A program made the position numbers and the translations under genes. Source: Escherichia phage REP1. Taken from it: DNA of 64,000 nt. Shown here in pieces: positions 23,599-30,098 of this stretch. Position 1 is the first letter of the stretch. Each line of letters starts with the position of its first letter. The notes beneath the pieces were generated by a model. The model was not told where the DNA came from. It saw nothing but the letters and a program-made list of their open reading frames with translations, and searched no databases. The DNA lies in sequence record OQ174500.1; one strand, given 5' to 3'.

Positions 23599-23867
23599 TG
23601 TTTGTTGTTCACACTATTTATGAAAATGAAGGTAATACTACACGTGATTATGGTCACGTAAATCAGTTTTTTAGATGCAATCCAGAATTCCGAGCTCAAA
23701 AAGACGAACGAATTTTTAAAAAATGTGTAGAGCAAGGTTTTATTTACGTCAAGCACTGGATGCAAGGAAATAAAGTTAGAACCACGTACCACAGGTCTTT
23801 GACTGAGCTTAATGATGAATTGATTTATAATAGAGCTGTAAACCAAACTCTAAAGGATGAACAATGA
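23598..23867 (+). CDS. 30.1: Hypothetical protein, 89 aa
   Basis: ORF with ATGA overlaps on both sides. Confidence 0.5.
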   Translation: MFVVHTIYENEGNTTRDYGHVNQFFRCNPEFRAQKDERIFKKCVEQGFIYVKHWMQGNKVRTTYHRSLTELNDELIYNRAVNQTLKDEQ

Positions 23868-25327
23868 TTCTTAAAATTCTGAACGAAATAGCATCTATTG
23901 GTTCAACTAAGCAGAAGCAAGCAATTCTTGAAAAGAATAAAGATAATGAATTGCTTAAACGAGTATATCGTCTGACTTATTCTCGTGGGTTACAGTATTA
24001 TATCAAGAAATGGCCTAAACCGGGTATTGCTACCCAGAGTTTTGGAATGCTGACTATTACCGATATGCTTGACTTCATTGAATTCACGTTAGCTACTCGG
24101 AAATTGACCGGAAATGCTGCAATTGAGGAATTGACTGGATATATCACCGATGGTAAAAAGGATGATGTTGAAGTTTTGCGTCGAGTGATGATGCGAGACC
24201 TTGAATGCGGTGCTTCAGTATCTATTGCAAACAAAGTTTGGCCAGGTTTAATTCCTGAACAACCTCAAATGCTGGCAAGTTCTTATGATGAAAAGGGCAT
24301 TAGTAAGAATATCAAATTTCCAGCCTTTGCCCAGTTAAAAGCTGATGGGGCTCGGTGCTTTGCCGAAGTCAGAGGTGATGAATTAGATGATGTTCGTCTT
24401 TTATCACGAGCCGGTAATGAATATCTAGGATTAGATCTTCTTAAGGAAGAATTAATCAAAATGACCGCTGAAGCCCGCCAGATTCATCCAGAAGGCGTGT
24501 TAATTGATGGCGAATTGGTATACCATGAGCAAGTTAAAAAGGAGCCAGAAGGCCTAGATTTTCTTTTTGATGCTTATCCTGAAATTAGTAAAGCCAAAGA
24601 ATTCGCCGAAGTAGCTGAATCACGTACTACTTCTAATGGAATCGCTAATAAATCTTTAAAGGGAACCATTTCTGAAAAAGAAGCTCAATGCATGAAGTTT
24701 CAGGTCTGGGATTATGTTCCATTGGTAGAAATATACGGTCTTCCTGCATTTCGTTTGAAATATGATGTACGTTTTTCTAAACTAGAACAAATGACATCAG
24801 GCTATGATAAAGTAATTTTAATTGAAAACCAGGTAGTAAATAACCTAGATGAAGCTAAGGTAATTTATAAAAAGTATATTGACCAAGGTCTTGAAGGTAT
24901 TATTCTCAAAAATATCGATGGATTATGGGAAAATGCTCGTTCAAAAAATCTCTATAAATTTAAAGAAGTAATTGATGTTGATTTAAAAATTGTAGGAATT
25001 TATCCTCACCGTAAAGACCCTACTAAAGCAGGTGGATTTATTCTTGAGTCAGAGTGTGGAAAAATTAAAGTAAATGCTGGTTCAGGCTTAAAAGATAAAG
25101 CCGGTGTAAAATCACATGAACTTGACCGTACTCGCATTATGGAAAACCAAAATTATTATATTGGAAAAATTCTAGAGTGCGAATGCAACGGTTGGTTAAA
25201 ATCTGATGGTCGCACTGATTACGTTAAATTATTTCTTCCGATTGCGATTCGTTTACGTGAAGATAAAACTAAAGCTAATACATTCGAGGATGTATTTGGT
25301 GATTTTCATGAGGTAACTGGTCTATGA
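23864..25327 (+). CDS. 30: ATP-dependent DNA ligase
   Basis: 487 aa; adenylation motif KADGAR (FAQLKADGARCF); matches T4 DNA ligase. Confidence 0.96.
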   Translation: MILKILNEIASIGSTKQKQAILEKNKDNELLKRVYRLTYSRGLQYYIKKWPKPGIATQSFGMLTITDMLDFIEFTLATRKLTGNAAIEELTGYITDGKKDDVEVLRRVMMRDLECGASVSIANKVWPGLIPEQPQMLASSYDEKGISKNIKFPAFAQLKADGARCFAEVRGDELDDVRLLSRAGNEYLGLDLLKEELIKMTAEARQIHPEGVLIDGELVYHEQVKKEPEGLDFLFDAYPEISKAKEFAEVAESRTTSNGIANKSLKGTISEKEAQCMKFQVWDYVPLVEIYGLPAFRLKYDVRFSKLEQMTSGYDKVILIENQVVNNLDEAKVIYKKYIDQGLEGIILKNIDGLWENARSKNLYKFKEVIDVDLKIVGIYPHRKDPTKAGGFILESECGKIKVNAGSGLKDKAGVKSHELDRTRIMENQNYYIGKILECECNGWLKSDGRTDYVKLFLPIAIRLREDKTKANTFEDVFGDFHEVTGL

Positions 25328-25512
25328 AAGCTTACTTAGAAACAATTGTCATTGCTCAAAAAGAAGGTGGAGATGTTTCTACTTCTGTATCACAAGTCAT
25401 TCTCGAATTTGTAGATGCATACGCTTATAATAAATTTACAGAAACATTTGATGCCTATGAAAAAGGACCAAAGTTTGAAATATATCGTACTCTCTTACCA
25501 CTAGATTACTAA
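25324..25512 (+). CDS. Hypothetical protein, 62 aa
   Basis: ORF with ATGA overlap to ligase stop; followed by terminator. Confidence 0.45.
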   Translation: MKAYLETIVIAQKEGGDVSTSVSQVILEFVDAYAYNKFTETFDAYEKGPKFEIYRTLLPLDY

Positions 25513-25535
25513 AGGCCTTCGGGCCTTTAATTTTA
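25511..25535 (+). terminator. Rho-independent terminator ending the ligase operon
   Basis: aaaggccttcgggccttt hairpin plus T-run. Confidence 0.75.
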
Positions 25536-25541
25536 TAAATA
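25534..25541 (+). promoter_or_regulatory. Late promoter TATAAATA for alt
   Basis: Exact TATAAATA 23 nt upstream of alt ATG; Alt is a late, head-packaged protein. Confidence 0.55.
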
Positions 25542-25564
25542 GAATAAACACTAGAGAGGATATG

Positions 25565-27658
25565 ATGGAACTTATTACAGAATTATTTGACGAAGATACT
25601 ACTCTTCCGATTACAAACTTAAATCCAAAGAAGAAAATACCGCAAATTTTTTCAGTTCACGTTGATGATGCAATTGAACAGCCAGGCTTTCGTTTATGTA
25701 CCTATACATCTGGAGGTGATACTAATCGCGATTTAAAGATGGGCGATAAAATGATGCATATTGTTCCTTTTACATTAACTGCTAAAGGTTCAATTGCTAA
25801 ATTAAAAGGTCTTGGTCCAAGCCCAATTAATTATATCAATTCAGTTTTTACTGTTGCAATGCAAACAATGCGTCAGTATAAAATTGATGCTTGTATGCTT
25901 CGTATTCTTAAGTCTAAAACCGCTGGTCAAGCTCGACAAATTCAAGTTATTGCTGATAGACTTATCCGTAGTCGTTCAGGTGGCAGATACGTCCTTCTTA
26001 AGGAACTCTGGGATTATGATAAAAAGTATGCATATATTCTTATATATCGCAAAAATGTATCACTAGAAGACATTCCAGGAGTTCCGGAAATTAGTACCGA
26101 GCTCTTTACTAAAGTTGAATCGAAAGTCGGTGATGTTTATATCAATAAAGATACTGGAGCCCAAGTAACTAAAAATGAGGCAATTGCAGCATCTATTGCA
26201 CAAGAAAATGATAAACGTTCTGACCAAGCTGTAATCGTTAAAGTTAAAATTTCCCGTAGAGCAATTGCACAAAGTCAGTCATTGGAATCTTCTAGATTTG
26301 AAAGTGAATTATTCCAGAAGTATGAATCTACAGCAGCTAATTTTAATAAACCAGCTACTGCACCTTTAATTCCCGAAGCAGAAGAAATGAAAATTGGAAT
26401 TAATTCATTAGCTTCTAAAACAAAGGCAGCAAAAATTATTGCTGAAGGAACGGCAGATGAACTTCACTATGATTATAAATTCTTTCCAATGAGTCAAGTC
26501 GGTGAAGTTTCAGAAAAAATTAAAGAAGTAATTTTTAATGCAATTAAAAATGAACCAACTACTTCAATAAAATGTTTAGAGAAATACGCAGCAGCTGTAA
26601 ATCAATTCTTTGAAGATTATAAAGATAAATGGCTTGCTAATCATAATAAAAATCGTAAAGGACAACCAGATGAAGTCTGGGAAGAAATAACTAAAAATTC
26701 CTGGAACGCAGCAAAAACTAAATTCCTCAAACGAATGATTTACAGTTTTTCTGGAATTGGTGCTGGTCCAATGATTGATATTACTATTGCCCGCGATGGT
26801 TCTAAATATACTCCATCACAAAAGCGTGGCATTAGAGAATATTGCGGTTCAGGATATACTGACATCAATAATCTTCTTTTAGGTCGTTACAATCCAGAAC
26901 GATATGATGTAATGAGTGAAAAAGAAATTGAATCTGCTATAAATAACTTAGATTCAGCTTTTGAAAATGGTGACCGCATACCGGAAGGCATCACAGTTTA
27001 TCGTGCTCAAAGTATGACTGCTCCTATATACGAAGCACTAGTTAAAAATAAAGTGTTCTATTTCAGAAATTTTGTATCTACTTCTTTAACTCCTATCATT
27101 TTTGGACGTTTTGGAATTACACATGCTGGTATTGGTCTTTTAGAACCAGAAGCTCGTAATGAATTAACAGTTGATAAAAATGAAGAAGGAATAACTATTA
27201 ATCCAAACGAAATAAGAGCGTATAAAGAAAATCCTGAATACGTTAAAGTTCAAATAGGATGGGCAATTGATGGAGCTCATAAAGTTAATGTTGTATATCC
27301 AGGAAGTCTCGGAATAGCAACAGAAGCTGAAGTTATTCTACCGCGCGGATTGATGGTCAAAGTTAATAAAATAACTGATGCTTCTAATAATGACGGAACA
27401 ACATCTAATAATACAAAACTCATTCAAGCTGAAGTTATGACCACAGAAGAACTCACCGAATCGGTAATCTATGACGGAGACCATTTAATGGAAACCGGCG
27501 AAGTAGTTGCAATGACAGATGATATTGAAATAGAAGACAGAGTTGACTTTGCATCATTTGTTTCATCAAATGTTAAACAGAAAGTAGAATCATCTCTTGG
27601 AATTATTGCGTCTTGCATAGATATTACAAACATGCCTTACAAGTTCGTTCAAGGATAA
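25565..27658 (+). CDS. alt: Alt, head-packaged ADP-ribosyltransferase (modifies host RNA polymerase)
   Basis: MELITELFDEDTTLPITNLNPKKKIPQIFSVHVDD... matches T4 Alt; C-terminal R-S-E type ART motifs (YRAQ, FVSTSL, TEAEVILPRG). Confidence 0.9.
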   Translation: MELITELFDEDTTLPITNLNPKKKIPQIFSVHVDDAIEQPGFRLCTYTSGGDTNRDLKMGDKMMHIVPFTLTAKGSIAKLKGLGPSPINYINSVFTVAMQTMRQYKIDACMLRILKSKTAGQARQIQVIADRLIRSRSGGRYVLLKELWDYDKKYAYILIYRKNVSLEDIPGVPEISTELFTKVESKVGDVYINKDTGAQVTKNEAIAASIAQENDKRSDQAVIVKVKISRRAIAQSQSLESSRFESELFQKYESTAANFNKPATAPLIPEAEEMKIGINSLASKTKAAKIIAEGTADELHYDYKFFPMSQVGEVSEKIKEVIFNAIKNEPTTSIKCLEKYAAAVNQFFEDYKDKWLANHNKNRKGQPDEVWEEITKNSWNAAKTKFLKRMIYSFSGIGAGPMIDITIARDGSKYTPSQKRGIREYCGSGYTDINNLLLGRYNPERYDVMSEKEIESAINNLDSAFENGDRIPEGITVYRAQSMTAPIYEALVKNKVFYFRNFVSTSLTPIIFGRFGITHAGIGLLEPEARNELTVDKNEEGITINPNEIRAYKENPEYVKVQIGWAIDGAHKVNVVYPGSLGIATEAEVILPRGLMVKVNKITDASNNDGTTSNNTKLIQAEVMTTEELTESVIYDGDHLMETGEVVAMTDDIEIEDRVDFASFVSSNVKQKVESSLGIIASCIDITNMPYKFVQG

Positions 27659-27661
27659 ATC

Positions 27662-29719
27662 ATGGAACTTATTACAGAATTATTTGACGGCGCTTCGGCG
27701 CCGGTTGTTAACTTAAATCCTAAGCATAAAATACCACAAATTTTTGCTATCCAAGTCGGCGAAGAAAGCGTGCTTCCTGGATTTAGATTTTGTACATACA
27801 CCTCTGGCGGTGATACAAATAAAAACGTTAAGCCAGGCGACAAAATGATGCATATCGTAATGATAGGTGTTAATGAGAAACTATCATTAGTTAAGCTTAA
27901 AAACTTGGGTGGAAATCCAATTGGCGTCATTAATGCTGTTTTTGATACTGCTCTTCAAACAATGAAACAGTATAAAATTGATGCATGCTTATTCCGCATA
28001 CTAAAGAGTAAAACAAATGGCGCTGCTCGTCAAATGCAAGTTATTGCTGACCGTTTAGTACGTACTAAAGGAGCAGGTCGATATGTTCTTTTAAAGGAAA
28101 TCTGGGACTATGATAAGAAATATGCATATATTATGGTTTACCGTAAAAATGCCAATTTAGAAGACATTCCAGGTGTACCTCCTATTTCAACTGAGTTATT
28201 CACAAAAGTTGAATCAAAGGTTGGTGATATTTATGTAGACGTTAAAACAGGTAATGCTGTTCCTAAAGCTGTCGCAGTTGCTGCTTCTATTGCTTTGGAA
28301 AATGATAAGCGCACGGATCAAGCTGTTATTCAGAAAACTAAAATTAGTCGTCGATTAGCAGCACAAGCTCAATATTCTACTGTTGATGCTTCACTTCAGG
28401 GTGATAGCTTCGCTGCTAAGAAATATCAAGAGTTTGAATCCAAAGTTCCGGTATATAAAGCAGAAGGACCAATGAACTCTGGCGTTATTCAGATTGGTTC
28501 AAACTTCGGCAAAGGAGCTATCGGTGGTATGAGAAGTGCTTCTCGTTTTAAATCTAACGATTATGAACTAGAAAACTTCCGAAATCATATTGCATTGGCC
28601 CATGCACGTTTACGCGATCCATCTATCAAGCTGCAGAGCGATATAACATATCAAGGTTCTCAAGAATATTTAAAGAATAAAGAATTCTTTGATTATAAAA
28701 CTGATAAAATTTTAAGCGATCTTGCTGACATTAATATTTCTAATAGCTTTGATGTTATTAAGAAAATTATCAATGATTTAGTTAAAGGTTCTAAAGCTAC
28801 ACCAGATGAAAAGACAGCTATTATTCAATTTGTCATGAATGGCATTTATAAATTGATTAATGAATCTGCCGCTCAGGCATATGAATATGCAAGTACTGAA
28901 GTAACTCCAAAAGGATTAACTCAGGCTGAGTCTGATGTAATTGAAGATTATTGTGCAGATTCATATGTTGAAATGAACTCGTTCCTTTTGGGTAAACCAG
29001 ATTCTACCCGTGAAGAATATATGGAACGAGCTATTAAACATATTGAGACGCTTGATTCTGCATTCGCTAAAGGTTCAGTTCTTCCTCCAGGAACTACACT
29101 TTACCGTGGACAAGAAGTTACCTTTAAAACTTTGCGTCATAACATTGAAAATAAAATGTTCTATTTCAAGAACTTCGTATCCACATCGCTTAAACCAAAT
29201 ATCTTCGGTGAGCATGGTAAAAACTATATGGCTCTAGATGATTCCGGCGCAGTATTTTCTGGCGAAGGAGAAGGTTCCGTTGATGCAGAAGATTTGATGC
29301 ATATGGGTAGTCATTCTACATATGCTAATGAAGATGCTGAAACTAGCGTGGGTATGGTAATTAAAGGAGCTGAGCGAATCAAAGTTATCGTTCCAGGTCA
29401 TTTATCAGGATTTCCATCAGAAGCTGAAGTTATTCTACCGCGTGGAATTTTACTGAAGATTAATAAAGTGAGCACGTACTTTATGAAAGAAACTGCTTAT
29501 AACAAGTATCTAATAGAAGGTACAATCGTTCCTCCTTCTGAACAATTAGAGGAATCGGTATATGATGGCGACCATCTAATGGAAACTGGTGAAGTTCGTC
29601 CAATGGCTGGATTTAATCAATTCCTTGTAGAAGAATCAAAAGAAGAGGAAAACGAAGTTTCTCAAATCTTGGCTTCTTTTGTTAACATCAACGGAATGTC
29701 TAAAAAGTTCAAAATGTAG
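27662..29719 (+). CDS. Alt-like ADP-ribosyltransferase paralog, full length, divergent central region
   Basis: 685 aa starting MELITELFDGASAPVVNLNPKHKIPQIF...; shares N-terminal ~200 aa and C-terminal ART motifs (YRGQ, FVSTSL, SEAEVILPRG) with Alt; centre differs. Confidence 0.8.
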   Translation: MELITELFDGASAPVVNLNPKHKIPQIFAIQVGEESVLPGFRFCTYTSGGDTNKNVKPGDKMMHIVMIGVNEKLSLVKLKNLGGNPIGVINAVFDTALQTMKQYKIDACLFRILKSKTNGAARQMQVIADRLVRTKGAGRYVLLKEIWDYDKKYAYIMVYRKNANLEDIPGVPPISTELFTKVESKVGDIYVDVKTGNAVPKAVAVAASIALENDKRTDQAVIQKTKISRRLAAQAQYSTVDASLQGDSFAAKKYQEFESKVPVYKAEGPMNSGVIQIGSNFGKGAIGGMRSASRFKSNDYELENFRNHIALAHARLRDPSIKLQSDITYQGSQEYLKNKEFFDYKTDKILSDLADINISNSFDVIKKIINDLVKGSKATPDEKTAIIQFVMNGIYKLINESAAQAYEYASTEVTPKGLTQAESDVIEDYCADSYVEMNSFLLGKPDSTREEYMERAIKHIETLDSAFAKGSVLPPGTTLYRGQEVTFKTLRHNIENKMFYFKNFVSTSLKPNIFGEHGKNYMALDDSGAVFSGEGEGSVDAEDLMHMGSHSTYANEDAETSVGMVIKGAERIKVIVPGHLSGFPSEAEVILPRGILLKINKVSTYFMKETAYNKYLIEGTIVPPSEQLEESVYDGDHLMETGEVRPMAGFNQFLVEESKEEENEVSQILASFVNINGMSKKFKM

Positions 29720-29772
29720 TTTACAAGTCCCTCGTGTTGTGTTATAGTAGTCTTACTGGCATAACATGAGGA
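29719..29772 (+). promoter_or_regulatory. Early promoter/RBS cassette, copy 2 of the 54-bp repeat
   Basis: 53/54 identical to 13892-13945; precedes ORF 29780. Confidence 0.6.
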
Positions 29773-29779
29773 ACACAAA

Positions 29780-30070
29780 ATGAAATCTTCTTTGCGCTTT
29801 TTAGGTCAAGAACTTGTAGTTGAAGGCGTTATTCCTGCTGATAATGCTTTTAATGAAGCAGTTTACGATGAATTTATCAAAATTTTTGGAACAGATAAAA
29901 AGTTCGGAATTTTTCCTTCTGAAAATTTTTCAAAGCCAGAACAGACTGAAAGTATTTTCCAAGGTGTAGTAACAGGTAAATTTGAGTCAGAAGCTCCGGT
30001 AAAAATTGAGGTTTATATTGAAGACAGTTTAGTTGCTTCAGTTGCTGCTTTTATTTCATTCCGTAAATAA
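29780..30070 (+). CDS. Hypothetical protein, 96 aa
   Basis: ORF with GAGGA SD; followed by bidirectional terminator hairpin. Confidence 0.55.
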   Translation: MKSSLRFLGQELVVEGVIPADNAFNEAVYDEFIKIFGTDKKFGIFPSENFSKPEQTESIFQGVVTGKFESEAPVKIEVYIEDSLVASVAAFISFRK

Positions 30071-30076
30071 AAATAT

Positions 30077-30094
30077 GGGGACCTTTCGGTCCCC
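30077..30094. terminator. Bidirectional terminator hairpin between convergent ORF 29780 and gene 54
   Basis: ggggacctttcggtcccc, flanked by A/T runs. Confidence 0.75.
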
Positions 30095-30098
30095 ATTG

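Follow-up and report, generated by a model that had tools for sequence, protein, structure and literature searches.

Two adjacent, intact open reading frames (ORFs) on the plus strand of Escherichia phage REP1 (OQ174500.1) were found to encode tandem full-length paralogs of the ADP-ribosyltransferase (ART) Alt, as had been proposed in a preliminary description of the sequence. The analysis covered a stretch of 64,000 nucleotides (nt), referred to here as the window. In Alt1 (697 amino acids (aa); 25565-27658), the N-domain and the C-terminal propeptide are of the T4 type, and the effector cassette is of class I, in the allele of T2 and T6. Alt2 (685 aa; 27662-29719) is a second Alt paralog with a class II cassette, and represents at full length what T4 retains as alt.-1/alt.-2. 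The phage is a T2/T6-like Tequatrovirus, and its alt locus has the common form, without the deletion.

Our favored reading, which we hold with reasonable but limited confidence, is that the tandem Alt1 and Alt2 are produced from one late operon, packaged, trimmed and injected, and that they modify different host arginine targets. Each protein comprises four parts: a six-residue N-terminal propeptide ending in ITE; a conserved α/β N-domain of ~230 aa (Tevenvirinae_ADPRT), which probably directs entry into the prohead core; a variable effector cassette made up of an all-helical region of ~140-180 aa and a C3/VIP2-like R-STS-ExE ART domain; and a C-terminal propeptide of ~55-65 aa located after an L-x-E site. 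Both propeptides and the N-domain are common to the two proteins, and the cassettes differ. Following late synthesis, Alt1 and Alt2 would enter the prohead, lose both ends to the prohead protease gp21, and be injected along with the phage DNA. Seconds after infection they would ADP-ribosylate arginines (ExE type) on different sets of host proteins, with substrate choice dictated by the divergent cassette; Alt1 is the likelier of the two to act on Arg265 of the RNA polymerase α subunit, and Alt2 would act on another target.

Domain layout and catalytic residues of Alt1 and Alt2

Over their full length, Alt1 and Alt2 are 42% identical (E 4e-159). In Alt2 numbering, identity is 69% for N-terminal residues 1-238, 14% for residues 239-380, 24% for the ART helical lobe (381-470), 38% for the ART core (471-630) and 42% for the C-terminal tail. 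No similarity between the isolated central regions was detectable by BLASTP (E 0.33), and small family profiles of the Alt1-type and Alt2-type centres aligned with an hhalign probability of 1.5%. The preliminary description had placed the unrelated centre at ~300 aa; the lack of detectable similarity stands, but the region concerned is only ~140-185 aa long (residues ~239-380, up to ~420), because the remainder is the ART helical lobe, which is homologous but diverged. Similarly, the proposed swap of central domains captures part of the difference only: the centre does differ, but the unit that varies is the whole central-plus-ART cassette (residues ~240-620).

In Alt1, the propeptide (aa 1-6, ending in ITE) and the N-domain (to aa 238) are encoded at 25565-26278 and are 99% identical to T4 Alt; the effector cassette, consisting of the helical region and the ART domain, occupies 26279-27460 and ends with LTE-632. 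In Alt2, the propeptide (aa 1-6, MELITE) and the N-domain (aa 7-238; α/β fold, PF26846) are found at 27662-28375. These are followed by the central all-helical region (aa 239-380; 28376-28801), which has no detectable similarity to its counterpart in Alt1 or T4 Alt, and by the ART domain (aa 381-631; 28802-29554), which features a helical lobe and a β core and ends at LEE-631, a predicted gp21 site. The predicted C-terminal propeptide of Alt2 (aa 632-685; 29555-29716) is disordered in the structural model and contains a conserved YDGDHLMETGE motif.

Both proteins match Pfam ADPrib_exo_Tox (PF03496; gathering cutoff 23.4 bits), with 130 bits for Alt1 and 71.9 bits for Alt2, and both match the 'Alt-like' phrog_802 with an E value of 1e-256 or better. 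The shared C-terminal R-S-E motifs that had been pointed out before, YR(A/G)Q, FVSTSL and EAEVILPRG, are all present in both ORFs. The catalytic motifs are intact in Alt1 (R480, codon 27002-27004; S505-T-S507, 27077-27085; E587-A-E589, 27323-27331) and in Alt2 (R482, 29105-29107; S507-T-S509, 29180-29188; E587-A-E589, 29420-29428). Substitutions in the R/STS/ExE residues of Alt2, which would have spoken against an active enzyme, do not occur, and R482, S507, S509, E587 and E589 do not vary across a family alignment of 27 sequences. The family profile places the arginine and ExE opposite YR and Q/ExE in C3 exoenzyme and CPILE-a; a search of the PDB with the single Alt2 sequence gave no match, and these C3-like toxins were reached by the family profile only. 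Full-length Alt1 and Alt2 had no match in NCBIfam, and the isolated N-domains and central regions had none in a copy of Pfam without PF26846. Membership of the ModA/ModB family was not supported by BLASTP (E > 0.5 for all pairs with Alt1 and Alt2).

The sequence that precedes and includes ExE reads GFPSEAE in Alt2, GIATEAE in Alt1 and APSNEME in T4 Alt, and the Alt2 version has an aromatic residue, like the AYPGQYE of C3. The residue four positions ahead of ExE is F in Alt2, I in Alt1 and S in T4 Alt. The stretch just before ExE presumably corresponds to the ADP-ribosylating turn-turn (ARTT) loop, which mediates substrate recognition in C3-like toxins. Judged by their sequences, Alt1 and Alt2 are probably Alt-family arginine-specific mono-ADP-ribosyltransferases.

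An AlphaFold2 model of Alt2 (mean predicted local distance difference test score (pLDDT) 76.3, predicted template modelling score (pTM) 0.66) features an α/β N-domain at residues ~15-195, an all-helical region at 200-470 with pLDDT mostly 80-92 from residue 250 on, and a β-rich ART core at 480-622; the ends (1-10 and 630-685) are disordered. The predicted ART fold is of the mixed α/β type of C3-like toxins. The central regions of Alt1 and Alt2 are of equal length and nearly collinear in their all-helical prediction, with helices at residues 250-260, 273-281, 286-295, 301-318, 328-355, 362-374, 381-414, 421-442 and 451-468 of Alt2 and at 248-260, 272-280, 282-302, 309-327, 335-362, 369-408, 417-438 and 452-467 of Alt1. 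On these predictions, extreme divergence of one ancestral helical domain would fit at least as well as replacement by an unrelated domain.

Comparisons with more distant proteins were also made. Alt1 and Alt2 are each ~30% identical to SP18 Alt, and superposition on the SP18 Alt model from BFVD gave template modelling (TM) scores of 0.73/0.80 for Alt2 and 0.47/0.51 for Alt1, values that depend on domain orientation, which is variable, and on the cassette class of SP18 Alt. The Alt1 and Alt2 centres match the same positions of the phrog_802 profile, which was not counted as homology since the profile probably mixes both classes. A search of 1.84 billion representative proteins with the central module of Alt2 (190 aa) returned one weak match of 30 residues (E 4e-6) to a repetitive protein of 1,147 aa; the representatives were clustered at 50% full-length identity, and Alt2 is probably hidden behind a representative with another cassette.

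Predicted late expression, packaging and processing

A T4 late-promoter box, TATAAATA, was found by motif match on the plus strand at 25534-25541, 23 nt 5' of the Alt1 start, and a GAGG ribosome-binding site lies between the box and the ATG at 25565. This start is likelier than the alternative at 25562, which would give a protein of 698 aa, because it yields the MELITE terminus of T4 Alt and places GAGG at a better spacing. A terminator-like hairpin followed by a T-run (25510-25529, plus strand) lies upstream of alt, where a conserved terminator has been reported by Nolan et al. in 2006 (PMC1524935). The Alt1 stop and the Alt2 start are separated by only 3 nt and the motif scan found no late-promoter box directly before Alt2, which suggests that both genes belong to one late operon; late expression of the pair is thus predicted from the promoter match. 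A second exact TATAAATA box is present inside Alt1 at 26938-26945, ~720 nt 5' of the Alt2 start, and could reflect either chance or an internal late promoter serving Alt2.

T4 Alt is present at ~40 copies per head and is cleaved by gp21 at ITE-6 and LTE-619, as determined by mass spectrometry, with the loss of 6 N-terminal and 63 C-terminal residues (PMC5694885; PMC9026906). Both prohead-protease motifs are kept in the window, with predicted sites at ITE-6 and LTE-632 in Alt1 and at ITE-6 and LEE-631 in Alt2. LEE-631 sits in the alignment column of T4 LTE-619, E631 is invariant in the 27-sequence alignment, and in the models of both proteins the ends that gp21 would cut away are the disordered ones. 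The Tevenvirinae_ADPRT N-domain (PF26846) was identified from precomputed Pfam matches on Alt2 homologues of 89-98% identity. The earlier suggestion that both proteins are packaged is therefore plausible in view of the shared N-domain, the two cleavage motifs and the single late promoter TATAAATA, and these features, together with the disordered ends, make co-packaging and injection of Alt2 likely.

Late transcription alone is no proof of packaging, and no virion data on Alt2 were found in the open-access literature. Both points would be compatible with an Alt2 that is not injected and acts within the cell that makes it, or on components of the phage or prohead. We consider such a late intracellular role improbable: the N-domain of Alt2 shares 69% identity with its counterpart in the packaged Alt, both of its cleavage motifs are conserved, both termini resemble disordered propeptides, and recombinants with an Alt1-type N-domain and an Alt2 cassette, described below, suggest that the N-domains are interchangeable.

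The second alt gene in T4 and related phages

The T4 RefSeq record has the order alt, alt.-1, alt.-2, alt.-3, gene 54, and its annotation traces alt.-1/alt.-2 to an old duplication of the initial part of alt. The statement in the preliminary description that T4 has only short ORFs at the second position proved correct. DNA alignment revealed that alt.-1/alt.-2 (NP_049810 and NP_049809) are a deleted remnant of Alt2, corresponding to its first ~340 nt and last ~20 nt and frameshifted by a 1-nt deletion in an A-run; the alt.-3 gene that follows is intact. T4 thus has the same locus and DNA as the window, but two short ORFs in place of an intact gene. The segment absent from T4 measures 1,699 bp (28001-29699, plus strand; Alt2 codons 114-680) and is flanked exactly by the imperfect 8-nt direct repeats CTAAAGAG and CTAAAAAG (28001-28008 and 29700-29707), which points to a microhomology-mediated deletion as the origin of the T4 relic. 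The exact T4 junction is found in 91 phage records, including the natural isolates HY03, SG1, RB55 and RB59.

The intact form is widespread. In 361 records, coverage of the complete tandem locus reaches 80% or more at high DNA identity, ~400 phage records encode Alt2 at an identity of at least 95%, and the 90%-identity protein cluster of Alt2 has 772 members. T2 and T6 each carry a pair of 697 aa and 685 aa. The second Alt-like proteins of T2 (BBF63359), T6 (BBF63615), RB3, RB18 and wV7 are Alt2 orthologues, 97-99% identical and of the same length and position, with no difference of substance; they are labelled 'hypothetical' or 'Alt-like', and records with Alt2 are often annotated 'Alt-like RNA polymerase ADP-ribosyltransferase (x2)'. 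Paralogs of alt in T4-like genomes, one of them full-length, were already listed by Nolan et al. (PMC1524935), and the connection of the second ORF with alt.-1/-2 is on record both there and in T4 RefSeq. The tandem arrangement is already known at the level of annotation, and the novelty implied in the preliminary description cannot be upheld. That description had also held that its case would fall if Alt2 were a common, already characterised family member; Alt2 is indeed common, but no paper characterising its function was found in the open-access literature (subscription journals lay outside the search). Among sequenced Tequatrovirus-like records with a match to the locus, about three quarters encode the second Alt. 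The tandem pair is therefore the common form and T4 the derived exception.

Since T4, RB55, RB59, HY03 and others (the 91 records above) have a deleted, frameshifted relic, Alt2 could be a decaying duplicate that is heading for loss, as in T4. For the window this is effectively refuted by the ~400 records with a full-length ORF at 95% identity or above, by the invariant catalytic residues, and by the pattern of substitution. Alt2 differs from its T6 counterpart by 55 synonymous and 10 non-synonymous changes, and the ratio of non-synonymous to synonymous substitution rates (dN/dS) is 0.046 for Alt2, 0.016 for its central region and 0.098 for Alt1. Alt1 and Alt2 are both under purifying selection. 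The possibility that Alt2 is a pseudogene was rejected on the basis of its dN/dS.

The locus is preceded by the DNA ligase gp30 gene (23864-25327, plus strand) and by an alt.1 homologue (25324-25512, plus strand; 62 aa, Pfam Phage_blade), which closes the upstream early/middle unit. After Alt2, an early-type σ70 promoter match, TTTACA-17-TATAGT with TG (29720-29748, plus strand), lies ahead of an alt.-3 homologue (29780-30070, plus strand; 96 aa, DUF5498) that is nearly identical to T4 alt.-3. Mutants of T4 alt.-3 with C-terminal extensions escape the CmdTAC defence system (PMC11618068). A bidirectional terminator hairpin (30075-30096) separates alt.-3 from gene 54, which with 48 and 29 belongs to the convergent baseplate genes on the minus strand.

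Effector cassettes, proposed targets and known systems

The preliminary description had matched the first ORF to T4 Alt. This holds for the N-domain (99% identity) and the C-terminal tail (94%), but the central-plus-ART cassette of Alt1 is another allele, with 32% identity to T4 Alt over residues 239-380 (37% by BLASTP over a central piece of ~185 aa) and 65% in the ART core. DNA identity between the two genes is 96-100% for aa 1-225, 40-73% for aa 255-595 and 81-99% at the end. Alt1 is ~98% identical to its T6 counterpart (dN 0.013), which has the same cassette allele, and the first alt gene of T2 has the same length. The corresponding identities of Alt2 to T4 Alt are ~68-69% in the N-domain, 12% over residues 239-380 and 38% in the ART core. 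Modification of RNA polymerase α at Arg265 is known for the T4 Alt allele only (PMC2988021); Alt1 is likelier than Alt2 to be the Arg265 enzyme because its cassette belongs to the same class as that of T4 Alt.

Modularity was assessed by comparing Alt1, Alt2 and T4 Alt with the Alt of Mosigvirus HX01 and with the Alts that Dhakavirus PSD2002 carries as a tandem array of three. The N-domains sort according to phage genus: the Dhakavirus and Mosigvirus copies are 62-74% identical to one another (62-67% for the PSD2002 paralogs alone), Alt1 and Alt2 are 69% identical, and identity between Tequatrovirus and Dhakavirus/Mosigvirus is 42-47%. The cassettes, on the other hand, cluster by class across genera. 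The middle PSD2002 gene falls into class I together with T4 Alt, Alt1 and HX01. Class II pairs the last PSD2002 gene with Alt2, at 47% identity in the centre and 59% in the ART core, and the first PSD2002 gene represents a third class. Class II genes adjoin alt.-3 both in the window and in PSD2002, and an Alt2-type gene beside alt.-3 is also found in a divergent metagenomic relative. N-domains thus track genus and cassettes track class, which indicates that the exchangeable unit is the central-plus-ART cassette between the N-domain and the C-terminal propeptide.

The number of Alt copies varies among Tevenvirinae genera, from one in HX01 to three in PSD2002, where genes of 631, 693 and 707 aa with three cassette classes extend in tandem from alt.1 to alt.-3 (L007:2012-8124). 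The ART cassette of Alt1 (aa ~400-615; 26760-27410) is 90-98% identical at the DNA level to that of the middle PSD2002 gene (L007:3916-5997), whereas the N-domains of these genes share only ~50% DNA identity; this looks like a recent exchange of an effector between genera. Four metagenomic proteins (P0003-P0006) combine an Alt1-type N-terminus with an Alt2 cassette, with crossovers at residues ~40, 100, 180 and 220, which suggests that the N-domains are interchangeable. One of these genes, P0006, directly follows alt.1 and is itself followed by the intergenic sequence that usually comes after Alt2 (two contigs, L004:6001-8061 and L005:5030-7090). This arrangement is the expected product of unequal recombination between tandem N-domains and suggests a single-gene locus formed in this way, although the contigs end 29 nt past the gene and could reflect an assembly artefact.

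A broader proposal, to which we give somewhat less than an even chance, is that Tevenvirinae alt loci constitute a polymorphic system of injected effectors. A genus-specific packaging N-domain would be combined with cassettes that move between genera and recombine via tandem N-domain repeats, and the class II target would be other than RNA polymerase α, for example a defence or translation protein.

Several points weigh against the assignment of Alt1 and Alt2 as co-injected enzymes with different targets. No virion proteome, activity or target data for Alt2 were found in the open-access literature, and a packaging role of the N-domain is a presumption for T4 Alt as well. [LI]xE is a short motif with several occurrences near the C-terminus of Alt2. 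The proposed difference in targets is drawn from sequence divergence alone. Finally, Alt2 is dispensable, at least on laboratory hosts, since it is absent from T4 and ~90 other records.

The last of these points would also fit a packaged and active Alt2 that has essentially the same targets as Alt1, namely Arg265 and a loose set of abundant proteins, and that simply provides more enzyme or robustness across hosts. The two proteins have the same architecture, arginine-type ExE site and operon, T4 Alt is promiscuous in its targets (PMC2988021), and T4 thrives without Alt2. We nevertheless consider a redundant dose of enzyme unlikely: the ART cores are only 38% identical and the centres have no detectable similarity, yet dN/dS is below 0.1 for both proteins, and the split into class I and class II is kept across genera, which is a better fit to distinct functions.

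Alt2 is unremarkable as a sequence finding and has been annotated before. What is known of injected phage ADP-ribosyltransferases, however, comes almost entirely from T4, which is a deletion mutant at this locus and has a minority Alt allele, whereas T2, T6 and most of the Tequatrovirus-like records that match the locus encode a further Alt that is strongly conserved and differs in its effector cassette. If the broader proposal above is correct, injection of two functionally distinct ADP-ribosyltransferases would apply to most T-even phages and was missed in work on T4 because its second gene is deleted. The target of Alt2 could add a new immediate-early step in host take-over or counter-defence, and its definition should be cheap and tractable because classical phages carry the gene.

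The closest known system is T4 Alt itself (gpAlt, NP_049811), a packaged and injected NAD+:arginine mono-ADP-ribosyltransferase with the same architecture, R-STS-ExE motifs and genomic position as Alt1 and Alt2. The ITE-6 and L-x-E processing motifs are also common to all three, as is late expression, which is predicted in the case of the window proteins; the differences lie in the cassette, which is another allele in Alt1 and another class in Alt2. T4 ModA and ModB are likewise phage ARTs of the R-S-E clade that act on host transcription and translation proteins, but they are ~200 aa long, early and unpackaged, and have no significant pairwise similarity to the Alts. The ART fold and catalytic triad are those of the C3/VIP2/iota-type R-S-E toxins (Vis, C3bot2, CPILE-a, Certhrax and SpvB), and within this group ExE is characteristic of the arginine-specific enzymes. 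Identity to these toxins is only 14-25%, and they are delivered by a secretion or translocation domain, in contrast to the phage-head N-domain of the Alts. Polymorphic toxins and MuF-fused phage effectors (Iyer, Aravind et al.; PMC5512222, PMC9503650) follow the same logic, in which a conserved domain for delivery is paired with an effector cassette that can be exchanged, although the Alt N-domain is not MuF and the Alts carry a single effector rather than being polyvalent.

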